This document shows positions 1-8,115 of a stretch of 8,115 bases of DNA, in pieces (the stretch's first letter is position 1; each line of letters begins with the position of its first letter). Under the pieces are notes generated by a model, which saw only the letters and a program-made list of their open reading frames with translations, ran no database searches and was not told the origin of the DNA. The position numbers and the translations under genes were made by a program. The stretch lies in sequence record DRR723986_232568; one strand, given 5' to 3'.

Positions 1-30
1 CACCTGATTATGAGTCAGGTGCTCTAACCA
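1..30 (-). repeat. att site: tRNA(CAT) fragment from D-loop to anticodon arm, lacking the tRNA 5' end; continues left of the window
   Basis: Reverse complement is TGGTTAGAGCA-CCTGA-CTCATAA-TCAGG-TG. tRNA-like sequence stops at 30: the + strand continues cgcaaaac instead of the expected D-stem complement (..tgagcta). CACCTGA (1-7) and TCAGGTG (15-21) form a perfect inverted repeat around a 7-bp spacer. Confidence 0.88.
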
Positions 31-78: not shown

Positions 79-98
79 TCTGCCAAATGTCTGTCAAA
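79..98 (+). repeat. Two tandem 11-bp TCTGYCAAATG units; putative integrase arm-type binding sites (left)
   Basis: tctgccaaatg (79-89) and tctgtcaaa (90-98). The same motif occurs three times at 7915-7945. Confidence 0.8.
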
Positions 99-1160
99 AT
101 GAAAGTATCTTACCCTAAAGTAAAGCAAGACTCTAACCAAAGAGTTTTTATTGATTTCACACATAATAACAAACGCTACAGGTTGTTTAATGGTGATAAA
201 ATCAACTCAAGTATTCAGCCTAACTCATACCCTTTAGACCAACGTTTAGAGATAGGTCATTTATTAGCTGCTGAGGTTTACAAGTTCCTTAATAGTGGAA
301 TGTGTATTAAACAACTTCAAAGGTCCAAACTAATGAAGCCTAATATGAGTGATGTAGGTTATCTAAAAGTAGCTTTAGAGCAAAAACTAAAAGGTAACTA
401 CTCCCTTAAATACAAAGAAACATTATCCTTTGTTTGTGATGGTTTATTAAGTGTTTTAAAAGACCAAACAATTAACTCTAACGACATCAAAAGAATGTTA
501 GATAAATACACCTCAGGAGTATCTTACAACACTCTTAAAAGACACTTAAATGTGTTGCTTAATGAAGCGGTTAGTTTAGGTATGAGCTCTAACCCAATGT
601 TAGAAATTAAGTCTAAGAAGACTAAAGCCAAACTCCATAAACCCTTTGATAATTTGGCTGAGGTATTAGATGAGATTAAGCATTACAACAATAATTTGTA
701 TTTATGCTGTTTACTTACTTATGGGTGTTTACTAAGACCTCATCGTGAAGTTAGAGAACTCACTTGGGGAGACTTCTCAGAAGACCTAAGTTTTATAAAT
801 CTATCAGGACATAGAAACAAATCAGGCAAGAATAGAATCGTTCCTGTACCTTCTTTTATCAAAGACTTGTTAGATGCTAAAGACAAGCATTTAAACATCT
901 TTACAGGGCGTATAACACCACCAAATAAAGACTACTTTAAAACACTTTGGGGTAGGTATAAAAAGAGTTCTAAGGTGTTAAAACAAGACCAAACATTATA
1001 CTCTTTTAGACACTCAGGAGCTATAGACATTTTTAAAAGAACAGGCTCTATAACTAAGCTGCAAAAAGCTATGGGACATTCTAATATTACGGTGAGTTTA
1101 ACCTATCTAAGAGGGCTTGAGATAGCGGAACTAAAAGAGGCTGATATGCCGAGTTTATAA
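99..1160 (+). CDS. int: Tyrosine recombinase / integrase (ORF is open from 87; ATG at 99 preferred)
   Basis: Catalytic motifs LLRPHRE (R), NKSG (K), YSFRH (HxxR with Y for the first H), MGHSN (H) and TYL (Y). The N-terminal RVFIDFTHNNKRYRL resembles an arm-binding beta-sheet domain. It is adjacent to the tRNA att site. The ATG at 99 has A at -3, as is usual for Bacteroidota starts. Confidence 0.95.
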   Translation: MKVSYPKVKQDSNQRVFIDFTHNNKRYRLFNGDKINSSIQPNSYPLDQRLEIGHLLAAEVYKFLNSGMCIKQLQRSKLMKPNMSDVGYLKVALEQKLKGNYSLKYKETLSFVCDGLLSVLKDQTINSNDIKRMLDKYTSGVSYNTLKRHLNVLLNEAVSLGMSSNPMLEIKSKKTKAKLHKPFDNLAEVLDEIKHYNNNLYLCCLLTYGCLLRPHREVRELTWGDFSEDLSFINLSGHRNKSGKNRIVPVPSFIKDLLDAKDKHLNIFTGRITPPNKDYFKTLWGRYKKSSKVLKQDQTLYSFRHSGAIDIFKRTGSITKLQKAMGHSNITVSLTYLRGLEIAELKEADMPSL

Positions 1161-1280: not shown

Positions 1281-2061
1281 ATGAAAAATTTAGTTTTTGC
1301 TTTTGCCCTTTTGTGTAGTACAAGTTTAGTAGCACAGTTTTTTCCCAATCAAAATAGTTCAGGAATACAATCGATAAGTAATAATGCAAGTGGGGACAGG
1401 TCAACTGCTATGGGAAATGTTACAGAAGCAAGTGGATATGTGTCAACCGCTATGGGTGTTTCAACTACAGCAAGTGGAGATTTTGCAACTGCTATGGGTT
1501 TACGAACTAAAGCACAAGATTTCGCAGCTACAGCAATTGGAACCTACAACATTGACGAAACACCAAATCCAACCGGTTTCTCTTTGCAAAATTCAGCCTT
1601 TGTCATTGGTAACGGGGGTTATGATAGCCAAGGCAATTGGTTAGGGGGTGCAGATGAAACTCGCTCAAACGCCTTCGAAGTCTTGTTTGACGGCACTACC
1701 ACAATTGCAGGAGACCTCAACATAAACTCAGATGCCCGTTTAAAAGCCAACATCATTTCTTTAGGAGCTACCCCTATCTAAACTGTTACAAATAGACGGT
1801 AAAACCTATACAATGAAGAAAGATGCTAATCATAAAAAGAAGGTTGGACTGTTAGCCCAAGACATTGAAAAGGTATTTCCTGAGTTGGTTACAGAAACTA
1901 ACGATATCAAGTCTGTAAACTACCAAGGGTTAGTGCCTGTGCTTATCAATGCAATGAAGGAACAGGATGCTATCAATAAACAACAAGAAGATAAACTTAA
2001 CAAACAGCAACAGGAAATAGATGAGTTAAAGGCTATGGTTAAGGCTTTAGCTAAGGGTTAA
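1281..2061 (+). pseudogene. Secreted fibre/adhesin-like protein (signal peptide, YadA-head-like repeats, peptidase S74 intramolecular chaperone, coiled coil), split by a single-base frameshift at C4 1771-1774
   Basis: ORF 1281-1781 has MKNLVFAFALLCSTSLVA|Q, ASGxxSTAMG repeats and NSDARLK. Removing one C gives ..LGATLSKLLQIDGKTYTMKKD.., which continues into ORF 1813-2061 (GLLAQDIEKVFPELV, SVNYQGLVPVLINAMKEQ), for 259 aa in total. A sequencing error is possible. Confidence 0.88.
1380..1547 (+). repeat. 42-bp (14-aa) coding tandem repeat, about 4 units
   Basis: GCAAGTGG at 1386, 1428 and 1470; GCTATGGG at 1407, 1449 and 1491; the fourth unit is degenerate (AQDFAATAIG). Confidence 0.9.
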
Positions 2062-2086: not shown

Positions 2087-3550
2087 CTATTTTACCTTAA
2101 TCAGTACAACATACTTAGAAATCTCTTTTATTTGCTCAGTAAGTGATAAAGTTTGTAGTTTAGTACTAGATGGTAAGTCTATACTTTTGGGAAGTACATC
2201 AATTAAGTTCAATACATAGCTTGATTTTATTGTATAACCAACATTATCTGCTATATCAGACCGAAGTTTTGAAGAGTTAATTCCAAGAAGATTGCCTTTA
2301 TCATCAAATAAAGGGCCTCCACTATTTCCTCCTTGGATTGGAGCAGTAATTTGATAAGTGGTAATATCCCCATCATATCCTGACTTAGAACTTATAATAC
2401 CGTCAGTAATTTTAATCTCTTTACCCATTAAGGATAGTGCCATAGGATACCCATAGGCATAAACTTTTGTCCCTACGTCAGAAGAACGTGTTTTAAAATT
2501 GTATGGCAAATTGTCAAGACCATCGAAATTCATATCAAATATTTTGATAATCGCTAAGTCGTTTACCTTATCGGATTGTACAATCTCAGCATTAAACTTT
2601 TGCACCTCTCCATCAACAATAAACTCTACTTCAATATCATCCGCGTCCTCAATTACGTGATGGTTTGTAACAATATATCCTGATTTAGATATGATTATTC
2701 CTGAACCATTTCCTGCCCATTCTCCGGACTTGGCCCTCCTTTTTTCGCTTAATTTCGGATAAACTTTATAAAGTATTGAATTACCTAATAATTCAAATTC
2801 TATTAATGCGTTATTTTTAACTGTACCTACTGCCTTTCTCTTGGAACGTTTATTGCCCATAGTCCAATTAACAGTAACTATCTCATCTGATGCGGCAGTT
2901 TCAAAAACTGCTTTTACTTCACCGGGTTTCCATCCTCCACTTCCTTCCAAAATGTATCCGATGAACTTATAATCATCTTTAACAATTGCAAGTTTATAAT
3001 CGCTATTATCCGATGATTTGTATTCCCAAATCCCTTCAAAAAGTTCAGTCCCGTTTTCATCAAAATAATCTCTTATACTTTTTTCTGAAGAAAAATTTAG
3101 TTCTGCACTTAGTTCAGTCTCAATTATTTGATTGGAGGTTGTCTCTGAGTTATATTTGTACTTGTGTGAAAGCATTTCCTTCATCGCCTTTTTTAATGCT
3201 ATACCAGATGAAAGAGCCCCCCTCCAACTGCTTTTATAAAAAGTTTGACCATCACTGGTTTGCAGATAAAAGTTTGCATCACAAGAAGTATAACCACAAG
3301 CCTCTTCTGAACTAACATATAATGCAAGGTCTGGGTTTTGCTCTAGGTCATCAGGGAAATCATCATTAACGTCTAAAGTGTTATACCCAGCTCTTTTTAA
3401 TTCTCTCAGAATTATTTTCTTACTATTTTTGTATGAAGTAGTTTCTACAACGAAATATTTGTAATTATCTACACCAGACCTTTTGAATGATTTTGATTGA
3501 CAAAAACCGATTAATGGCAAAACCAACAATAATAGAAGTAATTTTTTCAT
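2087..3550 (-). CDS. Secreted trypsin-like (S1C/HtrA-type, no PDZ) serine protease with N-terminal domains of unknown function
   Basis: Signal peptide MKKLLLLLLVLPLIGFC|Q; GSGIII..GYIVTNHHVI (His), DLAIIK (Asp) and GGNSGGPL (Ser). Confidence 0.92.
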   Translation of the reverse strand: MKKLLLLLLVLPLIGFCQSKSFKRSGVDNYKYFVVETTSYKNSKKIILRELKRAGYNTLDVNDDFPDDLEQNPDLALYVSSEEACGYTSCDANFYLQTSDGQTFYKSSWRGALSSGIALKKAMKEMLSHKYKYNSETTSNQIIETELSAELNFSSEKSIRDYFDENGTELFEGIWEYKSSDNSDYKLAIVKDDYKFIGYILEGSGGWKPGEVKAVFETAASDEIVTVNWTMGNKRSKRKAVGTVKNNALIEFELLGNSILYKVYPKLSEKRRAKSGEWAGNGSGIIISKSGYIVTNHHVIEDADDIEVEFIVDGEVQKFNAEIVQSDKVNDLAIIKIFDMNFDGLDNLPYNFKTRSSDVGTKVYAYGYPMALSLMGKEIKITDGIISSKSGYDGDITTYQITAPIQGGNSGGPLFDDKGNLLGINSSKLRSDIADNVGYTIKSSYVLNLIDVLPKSIDLPSSTKLQTLSLTEQIKEISKYVVLIKVK

Positions 3551-3644: not shown

Positions 3645-3890
3645 ATGGCATTTAGAGGAACTATAAATACTAATGGCAGACCAAAGGGAAGCCAAAACAA
3701 GAACACTAAGCTAATTAAAGATACTCTTGCAGAGTTATTAGAAAACAACACAGAAGAGCTCTTAAAACGTATTAATAACCTCAGCAATAAAGACTATGTT
3801 AAGTTTCATATTGATATAGCTAAAATGCTGTTACCAAAACCTACTAAAGTAAAAGTTACTATGGATGAAGTTCCTATTATACAACTGTAA
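3645..3890 (+). CDS. Small protein with GRPKGSxNK motif; terminase small subunit-like / DUF5681-like
   Basis: The N-terminal NTNGRPKGSQNKNT is followed by predicted amphipathic helices and LLPK. This layout resembles small phage packaging-locus DNA-binding proteins. The function is inferred. Confidence 0.65.
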   Translation: MAFRGTINTNGRPKGSQNKNTKLIKDTLAELLENNTEELLKRINNLSNKDYVKFHIDIAKMLLPKPTKVKVTMDEVPIIQL

Positions 3891-3935
3891 TTCGTACCAA
3901 TCGTACAGTTATATTGTTAGTACGAAGTACGATTT
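3889..3935. repeat. Palindromic TCGTAC repeat cluster A
   Basis: TCGTAC at 3892 and 3901, then inverted GTACGA at 3920 and 3927, around an AT-rich 13-bp centre. Confidence 0.85.
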
Positions 3936-4050
3936 ATTTATACAAAAATTATGTAACTATTTGACGTAGAATGAAAATAGATGAGGTTTAATAATCAAAA
4001 GCCTTAAAATCAATCAAAATCGAAATCTTTTATATCAGTATCACTTCTAA

Positions 4051-4416
4051 TTAATAATAACCTTTACCCATAACACAGTGCCTTACACCCCCTCTTGGGT
4101 TTTCTACATCTCCCTTAAATCTTGGTATTAAATGACAATGAAAGTGCATTACAGTTTGTCCTGAAACCTCTCCACAATTCATTCCAATATTATACCCCTC
4201 AGGAGTAACTTCCTTTTCGATAATTTCTTTTGCTTTATTAATCATCTTTGGAAGTTCAATTTGTTCTTCATCTGTCAATGAGAAATAATCCTCTCTTAAC
4301 TCATTAGAGATAATTAGTAAATGATTCTTTGATACAGGATAAGCATCGTAAATCATAAAAAAACACTTACCTCTATAAATAATTCTATCTTCAGGGATGG
4401 TTAAAAATACACTCAT
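4051..4416 (-). CDS. HIT-family (histidine triad) nucleotide hydrolase
   Basis: DAYPVSKNHLLII, GYNIGMNCGEVSGQTVMHFHCHLIPR (HxHxH) and GDVENPRGGVR. The start codon overlaps the upstream stop (TAATG). Confidence 0.95.
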   Translation of the reverse strand: MSVFLTIPEDRIIYRGKCFFMIYDAYPVSKNHLLIISNELREDYFSLTDEEQIELPKMINKAKEIIEKEVTPEGYNIGMNCGEVSGQTVMHFHCHLIPRFKGDVENPRGGVRHCVMGKGYY

Positions 4417-5441
4417 TAAAATGTTCCTATTAGTTCTATGTTAGGCTTCCACGTTTGTATGGAATTTTCTATTGCTAAGTTATAATGTTTCTCCAAAAAC
4501 CTCTTGCGTTTTTCTTTGGTTAAACCTGTCTGATTAACGATTGTTTCAGCTAATGGATGTTTGCTACTAATGTAAAATTCGTTTCTATTAAATAACCTTT
4601 CTAAAAAACGTTTTTCAGGGACTCTTGCGCTCTTTTGTCTGTTTACACTACTATCAGCTAAAACAAGATTCCAAACACCATTAATATTAGCTCCATTTTG
4701 AGAATGAATTACCTTATTAGTATGAGGCAAGAAATGGTCTACATCACAGATGTTTTGACTGTTTGAGTTTATAGAAATGTCTTGGAAACTGTAAAAGCAT
4801 TTACCCTTTTGATAACCATTTAAAGCATCTTTAACAGAGGTTACATCTTTTCTCTTCATCATATCACTTTCAATGAAAAACAAAGCGTTTTGCTCATCAT
4901 ACTTAACCTCTAATAAGTTAGGATTTATATTAAGATTCCAAGCTGTTTCAACTAAGTTCCATCGAGCTTCAACCTCTTGTTCAAAATTTTGAAAATGGAA
5001 GTTTTCTTTGAGTTTTAGTAACTCATCAGTTATTACAATTTCCTTTTTTCTACCAACATAATCTTTATGGTAAAAGGGATTAGGTATTTCTCCACCATTA
5101 ATATTTTGGAAAGCATCTACAACATTTACAAAACCATATCGTTCTGTTAATTTCAATAACTCTTGGTAATCTAATTCATCGGACAGATAAGACCTACAAC
5201 CATTTAAAAAAGTACTTGACTTTGAATTACCTTGTTTATCATTCTCTTTCAAATGATTTAGAATGTTTCTTGAAAATGGGTCTGCTAAATCTTTTAAACT
5301 AATTCTTGTAGTTTCTTTATTTGCTAACTCAAGAAGACTTTTAGCAAAAGCAAACTTATAAGTAGCTGAGTTTTTACCAAATAAGATAATAGCTCTCCAT
5401 TGAGATTCAAGACTTGGGTCGTTTAATTGGAAATTGGTCAT
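4416..5441 (-). CDS. HNH endonuclease domain protein (ATG at 5441 preferred over TTG at 5447)
   Basis: The C-terminal half has KCFY..DVDHFLPH..WNLVLA....N.QKS (beta-beta-alpha metal fold pattern). The N-terminal region contains NSATYKFAFAKSLLEL. Confidence 0.85.
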   Translation of the reverse strand: MTNFQLNDPSLESQWRAIILFGKNSATYKFAFAKSLLELANKETTRISLKDLADPFSRNILNHLKENDKQGNSKSSTFLNGCRSYLSDELDYQELLKLTERYGFVNVVDAFQNINGGEIPNPFYHKDYVGRKKEIVITDELLKLKENFHFQNFEQEVEARWNLVETAWNLNINPNLLEVKYDEQNALFFIESDMMKRKDVTSVKDALNGYQKGKCFYSFQDISINSNSQNICDVDHFLPHTNKVIHSQNGANINGVWNLVLADSSVNRQKSARVPEKRFLERLFNRNEFYISSKHPLAETIVNQTGLTKEKRKRFLEKHYNLAIENSIQTWKPNIELIGTF

Positions 5442-5444
5442 AGT

Positions 5445-5452
5445 CAAATATA
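5445..5452 (-). promoter_or_regulatory. Bacteroidota -7 promoter element TATATTTG directly before the HNH start codon
   Basis: The minus strand reads TATATTTG-ACT-ATG, an exact TAnnTTTG match. There is no well-spaced -33 TTG. Confidence 0.6.
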
Positions 5453-5464
5453 AATTATTAATAC

Positions 5465-5518
5465 AATTCGTACCACTCGAACCTTCGTATAAAGAACGAA
5501 TGGTACGATTTTGTACTA
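5465..5518. repeat. Palindromic TCGTAC repeat cluster B (putative iterons/ori downstream of the rep-like gene)
   Basis: TCGTAC 5468, TCGAAC 5477 and TCGTAT 5485, then inverted GAACGA 5494, GTACGA 5503 and GTACTA 5513. tcgtaccactcg pairs with cgaatggtacga (11/12). AATTCGTACCA and GTACGATTT are shared with cluster A. Confidence 0.85.
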
Positions 5519-5525
5519 TCTTCCA

Positions 5526-6509
5526 TTACGCAGCATCATTATATTTCTTTAACCACTTTCTAACAGCACCTTCAGAAACTCCAAACTCTTTTCCAATTTG
5601 AGTATTTGACACTCCTTCTGCTTTCATTCTTGCAGCTTCCATTATCCTGAAGTCAACGTCATCTTGACTGAGCTCCTTAAGATGTTCAGACTCTCTACCA
5701 TAACCCATTAATTGTAATTCAAGAATGTTAGAAGCCTTAACCTTGTTACAGATTATTACATTGTCATCACCATAGAGTATTTCAGTGTTTCTTGCTTTAA
5801 TCTGCTTTATGTATCTAATACTCTCATCCTTAAAGCTCTTATTAATAGCAAAACAACTGTCTGTAAAGTTCATTAACTGCTTACTGCCCGCAAGGTGATT
5901 AAGGTTAATTGCTTTAGTTACATCTCTCTTAGGAGTGTGAGCCAACACCAATATAGATAACCCATACTTTGTTTTAAGTCGCTTTAGGTTCTTCATTAGT
6001 GGTGCTGCAATGTTTGCCTTTTCTCCATCGTTTAATAGGAATGAAATGTTATCGACAATTACAACCTTACTCTCTGTTTCTAATACACATTCCTCAATGC
6101 TCTTAATTATGTTCTCAACACTATCCGTATTATCTGCAATAAAATCAGGATTCAGTTCTACTCGTATTAGATTGTCATCAAATCTATAATACTTGTTAAT
6201 GTTGTTCTCTGAGCCTTCATTAGCAGTATACCTTAATTGGAATTGTTTGGCTGTAAGTTCAAAGTCAAAGTAAAGTACCTTCTGTTTGTCTCCTTGATAC
6301 TTAAAATCACTAATGTAACCTTTACTAATGCCATTAGCTATTTGAACAGCTAATATGGTTTTACCAACGTTTGCGTCTGCAAATAAAATACAGAGTTCAT
6401 TCTCATACCATAGCTCACTAAAGAGCATATTAGGAACTCGTATGTGTTTAACTTTATTAATCCATTCGTTTGCTGAATTAACTAAAAATAACTTGTTAGG
6501 CTTTTTCAT
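5526..6509 (-). CDS. AAA_25/RepA-like (RecA-fold) ATPase, probable replicative helicase, with C-terminal HTH
   Basis: Walker A LFADANVGKT, YFDFEL, Walker B VVIVDN, LVLAHTPK and AGSK motifs. C-terminal HTH GVSNTQIGKEFGVSEGAVRKWL. ATGA overlap with the upstream gene. Confidence 0.85.
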   Translation of the reverse strand: MKKPNKLFLVNSANEWINKVKHIRVPNMLFSELWYENELCILFADANVGKTILAVQIANGISKGYISDFKYQGDKQKVLYFDFELTAKQFQLRYTANEGSENNINKYYRFDDNLIRVELNPDFIADNTDSVENIIKSIEECVLETESKVVIVDNISFLLNDGEKANIAAPLMKNLKRLKTKYGLSILVLAHTPKRDVTKAINLNHLAGSKQLMNFTDSCFAINKSFKDESIRYIKQIKARNTEILYGDDNVIICNKVKASNILELQLMGYGRESEHLKELSQDDVDFRIMEAARMKAEGVSNTQIGKEFGVSEGAVRKWLKKYNDAA

Positions 6510-6847
6510 ACTGTAAATAATGTTAATTGATTAGACTTAGGTTTATACTTCTTGTTGGTGGTGTAGAAGCCAACACCATTTCTTTTTGATATAGGACATT
6601 TAGAAAACTTTACTTTATAAATAGTCCCTTGTTTCTCCATACGATTTAATAGAGATGTAAAATTGGTACGTCTAACGTCTAATTCTACCTCAACCATTAA
6701 CATCGTTTTAGGTGTCATTGAAAAGGCTTGAAGAACCCTTCTCTTTTGAGCTCCATAAGCTCTTTGTTGTTCCACCTCACCCTGAGGTCTTACAACTTGC
6801 AGATTACTCTTGTAATCAGTTTCATAATTTGGATTTCGTAATCCCAT
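6506..6847 (-). CDS. Small basic winged-helix-like DNA-binding protein with C-terminal QLTLF motif
   Basis: PKTMLMVEVELDVRRTNFTSLLNRMEKQGTIYKV fits a wHTH pattern. It is translationally coupled to the ATPase, in the position usually held by xis/AlpA-like genes. Confidence 0.7.
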   Translation of the reverse strand: MGLRNPNYETDYKSNLQVVRPQGEVEQQRAYGAQKRRVLQAFSMTPKTMLMVEVELDVRRTNFTSLLNRMEKQGTIYKVKFSKCPISKRNGVGFYTTNKKYKPKSNQLTLFTV

Positions 6848-6994: not shown

Positions 6995-7885
6995 CTAATT
7001 TTTTCTAAGCTCTATTAAGTTGTTTATGATTTTTATAATTGGGTCAGATAATTCATCACTAATATGATTACTTCCTCTTAATTGGTCTTTGTTTACAATT
7101 TCGTTATCTACTGTAAAGACCTGTTCTGATTTAACCCAAATAGATTTGTCTTTAATAAAATCATCTTTTTTTAATGTTGAAATTAGATAGCTTAATTGGT
7201 TTCTCTTACCTATCCAATTAATTTTACTTTCAAAAATCTCCCCTGAAAAAATGTTTTGGAAATCTGTCTTTGAAGTGTCGGAAGAAATGAGATTCTCTTT
7301 AATTAAATCCCTTTGTAATTGCTTTAGGCTTTCAAAATCTTTAGTGTGGTGGAAACATTTATACCCTTTTAGAGTTCCTGAGGTTTCTTTTTTATTTGGT
7401 GAGCTAATAATTTTCTTTAAATCCTGTAAGACTTCTAATATTTCTTTAAAATAGAATTTAAGTTGGTTGTGATTTTTCTCCGTTATAAGAAGTGTGTCTG
7501 TATTTGACTTTTTATCTAAACTTGTTTTATACTCAAAAAAATTTGTGCCATCAATACTATTCCATAGCAAAGGGGTTAATCCAATAAATTCATTTAGCTC
7601 ACTCTTTAAAATCTCAACTCCCAAATTTTCATTATTTGTAAAAAGTTCTAAATCAAAAAAACCATTTGTATTAATAAATCTTTGCTTCCTTAACAACAAA
7701 TACTCTTTAAGCTCTTGTACAGTGAAAGAATTAACGATTGTAATGGGTCTATAAGCATTATACATTCTATCTCTTTCTTCAATATCCAATCCATACTTTT
7801 CAGCAACATCAAAAGCATTGAGTTTGTTAACTGAAAATATTAGGTTTGAAATGTAGGCTTCTAATTGGTCTTCGGTAAAGTTCAC
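6995..7885 (-). CDS. Hypothetical protein (GTG start), possibly an element-encoded transcriptional regulator
   Basis: 296-aa uninterrupted ORF. The C-terminal LI..T...F..IFSG....KINWIG...L.YLI..L pattern resembles uncharacterised proteins of Bacteroidota mobile elements. The function is inferred from position only. Confidence 0.7.
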   Translation of the reverse strand: MNFTEDQLEAYISNLIFSVNKLNAFDVAEKYGLDIEERDRMYNAYRPITIVNSFTVQELKEYLLLRKQRFINTNGFFDLELFTNNENLGVEILKSELNEFIGLTPLLWNSIDGTNFFEYKTSLDKKSNTDTLLITEKNHNQLKFYFKEILEVLQDLKKIISSPNKKETSGTLKGYKCFHHTKDFESLKQLQRDLIKENLISSDTSKTDFQNIFSGEIFESKINWIGKRNQLSYLISTLKKDDFIKDKSIWVKSEQVFTVDNEIVNKDQLRGSNHISDELSDPIIKIINNLIELRKN

Positions 7886-8086: not shown

Positions 8087-8115
8087 TGGTCCCACTTGGG
8101 CTCGAACCAAGGACC
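8087..8115 (-). tRNA. 3' part (variable loop, T arm, acceptor strand) of tRNA-CAT, probably tRNA-Ile2; the gene continues beyond the window; att site
   Basis: Reverse complement is GGTC-CTTGG-TTCGAGC-CCAAG-TGGGACC-A. The CAT anticodon is inferred from the duplicated fragment at 1-30. G68/G69 and the GA-CTCATAA-TC arm resemble Ile2. The three G-C pairs of an initiator anticodon stem are absent. Confidence 0.85.

Follow-up and report, generated by a model that had tools for sequence, protein, structure and literature searches.

What does a histidine-triad (HIT) nucleotide hydrolase do beside an HNH nuclease in the cargo of a small mobile element? The question is raised by record DRR723986_232568, in which a first-pass annotation had proposed a two-gene antiphage system, carried by a satellite, with the HIT protein gating the nuclease. 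The window, i.e. the whole stretch of DNA analysed (8,115 nucleotides), is a complete 8.1-kb integrative element. Outside the two genes its main features are the following.

1 to 30, minus strand: tRNA fragment (CAT anticodon), left att end; contigs continue into the 5' part of the tRNA.
87 to 1160, plus strand: tyrosine integrase of the carrier element (profile matches).
4019 to 5463, no strand: variable cargo slot (a single run X2 contig, depth 8).
5526 to 6509, minus strand: AAA_25/DnaB-like helicase with a C-terminal HTH, element replication module (profile matches).
8087 to 8115, minus strand: right att end, formed by a tRNA 3' half with a terminal CCA (sequence and contigs).

The single run X2 contig joins 4019 to 5463, the whole cassette being skipped or replaced and the intervening sequence unread, which suggests that the cassette occupies a variable cargo slot. 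ARAGORN found no whole tRNA in the window, only tRNA(CAT) fragments at both ends. The carrier element has an integrase, a helicase and tRNA att ends, as a PICI-like satellite would, and is likely a satellite: the cargo slot, the att ends and the integrase agree with the satellite cargo proposed earlier, but no helper phage was seen and no capsid gene was found in the 8.1-kb window. DNA near-identical to the window occurs in marine and aquatic metagenomes, the closest genome copy being a Flavobacteriaceae MAG (85%); no relatives of the helicase were found in IMG/VR.

Several other parts of the element deserve mention. An 81-aa ORF (3645-3890, plus strand) matches PHROG 8771 (unknown function, E 2e-5) and carries an NGRPKGS motif which we take to be that of small terminase subunits (TerS-like). 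Imperfect inverted-repeat blocks on TCGTAC/GTACGA bracket the cargo slot at 3892-3932 and 5468-5508 and contain all six copies of this hexamer in the window; they may be protein-binding, origin or recombination sites. A YadA-head repeat gene with an S74 chaperone tail (1281-2061, plus strand) is split in two frames near 1771-1813, a region in which other contigs differ in repeat number and by small indels. A 487-aa secreted-type trypsin-like protease (2087-3550, minus strand) is a second variable cargo, run X2 giving no cover at 2440-3523. A model of the PMC12799240 kind, in which trypsin activates the nuclease, was rejected, the N-terminus of the protease being signal-peptide-like and trypsins not being a recurring neighbour. 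The ORFs of 113 aa (6506-6847) and 296 aa (6995-7885), both on the minus strand, have no convincing family in Pfam, PADLOC, NCBIfam or PHROGs.

The cassette itself lies entirely on the minus strand.

4051 to 4416, minus strand: 121-aa HIT-family nucleotide hydrolase with an HFHCH triad, lacking the N-terminal CxxC.
4414 to 4418, minus strand: TAATG stop/start overlap (sequence; translational coupling inferred).
4416 to 5441, minus strand: 341-aa nuclease, with an SBD-like winged helix (about aa 8-168), an HNH core (about aa 215-275) and a conserved helical C-terminus.
4617 to 4799, minus strand: HNH (beta-beta-alpha-Me) core, D235-H236...N258...N267, Cas9-HNH-like, with a degenerate Zn knuckle.
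4938 to 5420, minus strand: 'TYKF' winged-helix domain, a predicted reader, with near-invariant Y28, K29, F30, V107 and F111.
5445 to 5452, minus strand: TATATTTG, possible -7 promoter element of the Bacteroidota type, separated from the ATG by 3 nt.

Both genes are confirmed, HNH at 5441-4416 and HIT at 4416-4051, with Pfam matches to HNH_4 (E 1e-6) and HIT (E 3e-17, 63.4 bits for a cut-off of 21.5). For the nuclease we prefer the ATG at 5441 to the TTG at 5447 chosen by the ORF finder because the closest full-length homologs have 341 aa. The motifs had been called intact, and this is true of the catalytic residues: D235 is present, H236, N258 and N267 are kept in 73, 74 and 72 of 76 aligned relatives respectively, and H91, H93 and H95 (H91-F-H93-C-H95) in 61/61 linked HITs. 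It is not true of the Zn-knuckle cysteines, which are degenerate (CxxS, DxxV) here and throughout the Bacteroidota clade. The TAATG overlap lies at 4418-4414, and an identical 1-nt overlap joins the two genes in 35 of 54 adjacent HNH-HIT clusters.

The promoter element fared less well. TATATTTG fits what we take to be the Bacteroidota -7 consensus, TAnnTTTG, and if functional would give a near-leaderless mRNA. But no -33 element was seen upstream of the HNH gene, the window has 8 copies of the -7 motif, and the motif lies upstream of only 9/54 relatives (0/54 in in-gene controls); a promoter consisting of this candidate motif only is plausible. Relative to the closest genome copy, synonymous changed codons outnumber non-synonymous ones in both HNH (124 vs 52) and HIT (40 vs 20): the two genes are under purifying selection. 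One 217-nt RNA contig maps to 4903-5117; it was rejected as a sign of transcription.

How constant is the pair? The nuclease has at least 3,752 relatives at 90% clustering (from 5,490 candidates), or 1,171 representatives at 50%. Its distribution is patchy, about 1% of genomes in three phyla: 4/400 Bacteroidota, 5/400 Pseudomonadota and 2/400 Bacillota in an even draw of genomes that left out the centres. IMG/VR holds 7 copies, INPHARED (50,697 phage records) none. Among the first 600 pattern matches in GTDB 559 were relatives, of which the best 80 were retained, giving 64 clusters at 90% identity. In this set, biased to close Bacteroidota relatives, 59 of the 64 non-redundant clusters are HIT-linked: HIT follows directly downstream in 54, a fusion of methyltransferase and HIT adjoins the nuclease gene in 2, and in 3 the HIT is one gene away. 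The conserved linkage sought by neighbourhood analysis is thus borne out. Flanking genes other than the partner vary between loci. The sequence identities of HNH and HIT are correlated (Mantel r 0.61, p 0.001, 59 pairs), a pattern also expected from simple co-transfer.

Fusions, which had also been suggested as a check, do exist. The best 120 longer homologs of the window HIT carry an HNH domain in 100 cases and a methyltransferase domain in 12 (precomputed Pfam). The exact pair is fused only in P0342 (468 aa), on one 2.2-kb contig; we do not accept it as a genuine fusion form, as it is one sequence and its junction could be read-through or error. None of the 80 metagenome loci ranked on P0342, a HIT-fused query, carries this fusion, a stop codon separates HNH from HIT in four loci (L127, L128, L162, L164), and a weak search for fused forms of 652-2000 aa found none. 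A separate large family (P0284-P0392) consists of single chains of about 330 aa with a different N-domain (MSHIYQPVM motif) followed by HNH and a HIT 45-53% identical to that of the window; homology between its N-domain and that of the window nuclease was rejected, only the HNH core aligning. A divergent sister clade (L113:1492-2514) matches PHROG 338 over its full length (E 3e-73) and is likewise followed by a HIT gene.

In all, we surveyed 189 loci, i.e. 136 clusters, of which 6 were dropped for short flank. In 126 of the remaining 130 clusters a HIT, class I SAM methyltransferase, MazG-like (PRA-PH) or Nudix gene lies within 1.5 kb of the nuclease gene. The partner is adjacent on the same strand in 117 of them (75 HIT, 2 fusions, 38 methyltransferase, 2 MazG-like), and the even draw gives a partner in 11/11 (5 HIT, 5 methyltransferase, 1 MazG-like). 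Only four clusters (L003, L004, L013, L194) are without one. Depending on the clade, HIT lies before or after HNH; it is upstream in 15 clusters. A quick tree built from 134 nucleases shows 9 changes of the HIT label and 7 of the methyltransferase label, of which supported branches force 5 and 4, respectively. HIT is exchangeable, its place being taken elsewhere by a small SAM methyltransferase, by a fusion of methyltransferase and HIT, or by a pyrophosphatase of the MazG/Nudix type. Nudix genes lie near the nuclease in six loci (L002, L070, L075, L076, L088, L111). In three Sphingobacterium loci (L055, L070, L075; about 7030-7640) HNH and HIT are separated by a secreted-looking gene of 200 aa that matches nothing in Pfam or NCBIfam. 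Two Pseudomonadota loci (L101, L105) have the HNH plus methyltransferase version next to a tRNA-linked integrase, a cargo position like that of the window.

These exchanges bear directly on the gating role that had been imagined for HIT. In a gated toxin acting by abortive infection, the nuclease would attack host DNA unless its partner removed a signal or adduct or modified the nuclease, and infection would tip the balance. The partner in 126/130 clusters, the probable coupling in 35/54 and the co-variation of the two proteins, for what co-transfer leaves of it, all go in this direction, and an off-switch role for HIT is proposed in Thoeris type II (PMC8565338). But the slot is filled by four unrelated folds, well-supported branches force no fewer than 5 changes of label for HIT and 4 for the methyltransferase, 4/130 clusters are partnerless, and the Pfam and PADLOC profile matches include no ligand-sensing domain, whether SAVED/CARF-type or other. 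HIT as a dedicated signal gate is not supported, partners of unrelated fold being better explained by a shared metabolite than by a dedicated protein gate. The gated toxin as a whole appears unlikely; it keeps this weight because neither the near-obligate partnership nor the methyltransferase is explained by the clean-up role that we favour below.

What might the partners act on? The best PDB sequence matches of the HIT protein are mycobacterial Ap4A phosphorylase-like proteins (3wo5 and 3ano, E 2e-15 to 1e-14), which share its HxHxH triad, with Hint/Fhit-type enzymes also among its closest structures; its scores are far under the NCBIfam cut-offs (60 vs 290, 55 vs 130 and 42 vs 206 bits). HIT proteins of the aprataxin type remove 5'-AMP from stalled ligation ends. 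A HIT fold with an intact triad, and close HIT homologs fused to HNH proteins, would suit such a repair of collateral damage in host DNA by a weakly specific nickase or restriction enzyme. We consider this highly improbable, since a HIT of 121 aa has no DNA-binding extension, the closest structures are of the Ap4A phosphorylase and Hint/Fhit type, and MazG, Nudix and methyltransferase partners would be left unexplained. The stand-alone methyltransferase is TehB-like, of the small-molecule class I, among many generic matches, and is unlike DNA methylases. Among methyltransferase families the fused one is matched best by TIGR04096, which is dnd-associated (E 1e-14 to 1e-19), over 85/478 positions and below cut-off. 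No DNA methylase is a constant neighbour across the nuclease loci.

The N-terminal domain had been suspected of sensing DNA modification, and the comparison of structures supports a reader-like fold. The domain has no Pfam family in the 76 members, and its AlphaFold model has a pLDDT of 94. Searched against 48,161 chains (VIA), the model has SBDs of ScoMcrA, SprMcrA and Hga as 5 of its top 7 matches (Z 7.1-8.1, rmsd 3.5-4.0 A, 117-121 residues). Cdc6/Orc winged helices are tied with them (1fnn Z 8.0, 1w5s Z 7.8; 98-107 residues), and with VIA a Z near 8 can reflect a common arrangement. In the Atlas, the closest cluster to carry a Pfam name is PF26340 DNA-SBD_ScoMcrA (0.76, 30% of members), which is a lead only. 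Other approaches gave no link: Foldseek had no match at E<=0.001, NF045808 did not match the window protein at E<=0.01, and no SBD family appears among the matches of the 76 members in a Pfam copy that may lack PF26340. A profile link to the SBD was rejected, hhalign being not significant with either 2 or 15 SBD sequences. A DpnI-type m6A winged helix was rejected as well (Z only 4.3).

By eye, using the secondary structure of the model and the ScoMcrA sequence but not coordinates, Y28-K29-F30 would fall at H116-R117-P118 of ScoMcrA and N106-V107-x-x-A110-F111 at Y164-P165-x-x-A168-L169. In this register the Lys is kept at the R/K117 position, while the SBD His is replaced by Tyr and the Pro by Val. 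Conservation among the 76 members is high for Y28 (72), K29 (73), V107 (76) and F111 (71), and position 106 is Tyr in 19, like ScoMcrA Y164. H116 and P165 are the most conserved pocket residues of the SBD (PMC6224610). The modelled pocket position is thus strongly conserved with a chemistry different from that of the SBD, and we do not count the window nuclease among the SBD-HNH enzymes. The domain is a probable modified-DNA reader; the SBD is also treated as a winged HTH in PMC10853773.

A winged helix may also read plain base sequence. Winged-helix likeness is common to generic DNA binders, and the patchy distribution of about 1% fits selfish spread, as for a sequence-specific restriction enzyme or an addiction module whose partner somehow protects the host. 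Here the difficulty is the partner: the methyltransferase resembles TehB and small-molecule enzymes rather than DNA methylases, and to our knowledge HIT, MazG and Nudix proteins cannot mark DNA. We hold this explanation to be quite unlikely.

Is the setting defensive? PADLOC matches (E<=1e-8) were obtained for 39 of 148 scanned neighbours (from 210 non-redundant near neighbours) and for 8 of 115 control genes, which came from 7 Bacteroidota genomes by way of 20 arbitrarily chosen 8-kb stretches (odds ratio 4.8, Fisher p 4e-5), both sets containing generic helicase/ATPase matches. The neighbour matches include a CBASS cyclase and effector, DRT8, Wadjet JetA, Tiamat TmtA, SoFic and PD-T4-3, as well as type I, II and IV restriction proteins; the defence-island context is thereby supported. 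Neither Dnd nor Ssp models are among the listed matches of the 148 neighbours, and co-location with phosphorothioate (PT) modification genes was rejected. That 74% of scanned neighbours have no PADLOC match leaves room for a role outside defence, be it the salvage of nucleotides from degraded DNA or a function in the life cycle of the element, and HNH genes assist packaging in phages. Such roles are very unlikely in view of the element variant without the cassette at the slot, the unrelated flanks across relatives and the lack of any match in the 50,697 phage records. We conclude that this is a real, conserved, mobile two-gene module, and probably a defensive one. As first stated, it could not be assigned to a named system: PADLOC (PADLOC-DB 2.0.0, 2023) gave none for the pair, and the weak, partial matches to ThsC, Cas9 and PtuB were rejected as a basis for naming it.

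With moderate confidence, we read the cassette as a nuclease of the type IV kind, dependent on DNA modification, with a partner that destroys the modified nucleotides set free, and not as a signal-gated toxin. HIT, MazG and Nudix enzymes all break P-X bonds of free nucleotides. Through its conserved pocket at the SBD position the winged helix would read a chemical mark on incoming DNA, and the HNH domain would cut near it; a host without the mark would need no protective DNA methylase. In abnormal nucleotides, whether they come out of foreign DNA or were made for it, the HIT protein would hydrolyse the P-X bond and so keep them out of host DNA, where the nuclease would cut self. In other lineages a MazG-like or Nudix pyrophosphatase, or a small-molecule-type SAM methyltransferase, would do the same job. 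Here we infer nuclease activity, modification dependence, the HIT substrate and any antiphage effect. The reader-then-HNH architecture matches SBD-HNH enzymes, and a reader joined to HNH, with no DNA methylase, follows the type IV pattern (PMC7461809). Against this reading, a near-obligate partner exceeds the need of an accessory enzyme, since characterised SBD-HNH enzymes cut as purified single proteins (PMC7461809). For the methyltransferase to fit clean-up, its substrate would have to be a small molecule. The likeness to the SBD is itself middling (Z about 8, tied with Cdc6/Orc), with no significant Foldseek or hhalign link and with His and Pro apparently replaced.

Which mark would be read is a further question. 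Phosphorothioate as the target, with a HIT that desulfurates dNMPS to prevent self-marking, is a bold and rather unlikely version. The Tyr/Lys/Val pocket would read PT DNA and the HNH domain would cut it. By polymerase stereochemistry released dNMP-alpha-S would, once salvaged, end up as Rp-PT linkages in host DNA, which would trigger self-cutting. MazG and Nudix enzymes would break dNTP-alpha-S, and methyltransferases would S-methylate dNMP-alpha-S or sulfide. Human HINT1 turns dGMPS into dGMP and H2S, as described in PMC8775712. This chemistry, the SBD-like fold, the TIGR04096 match and the absence of DndC in carriers are four weak hints of sulfur; DndC is found in 0/50 carrier genomes and 8/171 of the Bacteroidota background, which is not significant (one-sided Fisher p 0.12). 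If true, one sulfur chemistry would account for all four partners, and the family would be a second widespread class of PT-reading restriction enzymes with built-in sulfur-nucleotide detoxification.

How does the pair compare with known systems? The closest are the PT-dependent type IV enzymes SBD-HNH and SBD-SRA-HNH (EcoWI, SprMcrA, Hga, ScoMcrA; NF045808, PF26340). They have a winged-helix reader N-terminal to HNH, to which the predicted fold of the window domain is similar (Z 7-8, tied with Cdc6/Orc), and the window protein shares with them the Lys at R/K117 (by eye), a C-terminal HNH with catalytic His and Asn, and the absence of a cognate DNA methylase. They are rarely coupled with dnd genes; among carriers of the window family DndC was found in 0/50, which does not differ significantly from the background. 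In contrast, there is no sequence or profile similarity, the window reader has two extra helices, His116 and Pro165 appear as Tyr and Val, the HNH is Cas9-like with a degenerate Zn knuckle, and the window family has a near-obligate HIT, methyltransferase or MazG partner. One genome has three SBD-HNH (NF045808) genes in tandem (L117, L124 and L126, G1262:C112).

SauUSI with Nudix offers the same linkage of a nuclease to a small nucleotide hydrolase, and the window family also occurs near Nudix. SauUSI is presumably a PLD-helicase, whereas the window nuclease is a small winged helix-HNH protein with HIT. SauUSI is an ATP-dependent 5mC/5hmC enzyme, and SauUSI-like type IV enzymes are linked to Nudix genes (PMC3141236), which are not needed for restriction (PMC3312211). 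ThsC of Thoeris type II is a HIT inside a defence system, to which the window HIT has a partial PADLOC match (E 4e-9). But the window effector is a predicted DNase, and neither ThsA nor ThsB matched in the nine window proteins or the listed matches of the 148 neighbours. Similarity to Septu PtuB and to Cas9 is weak and centred on the HNH core; unlike these, the pair has no PtuA ATPase, RuvC or guide, there being no constant ATPase neighbour and the AAA_25 gene of the window matching primase/helicase families, not PtuA. Literature searches (subscription journals being outside their coverage) found no paper on the pair. A term search of the main texts of PMC10853773, PMC12839542, PMC12366544, 10.1101/2025.01.08.631726 and 10.1101/2025.01.08.631966 found no histidine-triad protein, although their supplements may list one. 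The only defence HIT that we found in print is Thoeris ThsC (PMC8565338).

The pair is best read as an unnamed reader-HNH, type IV-like restriction variant with an exchangeable nucleotide-processing partner. Small nucleotide hydrolases sit by many modification-dependent restriction enzymes, and their role has been open since the SauUSI paper of 2011; natural partner swaps in a compact family make it testable directly, with two genes. If the reading is true, the family would define a pocket of a new kind for reading DNA on the SBD winged-helix fold, perhaps also a new reagent with which to detect a DNA modification, and the cassette would add defence cargo to those of marine Bacteroidota integrative elements.
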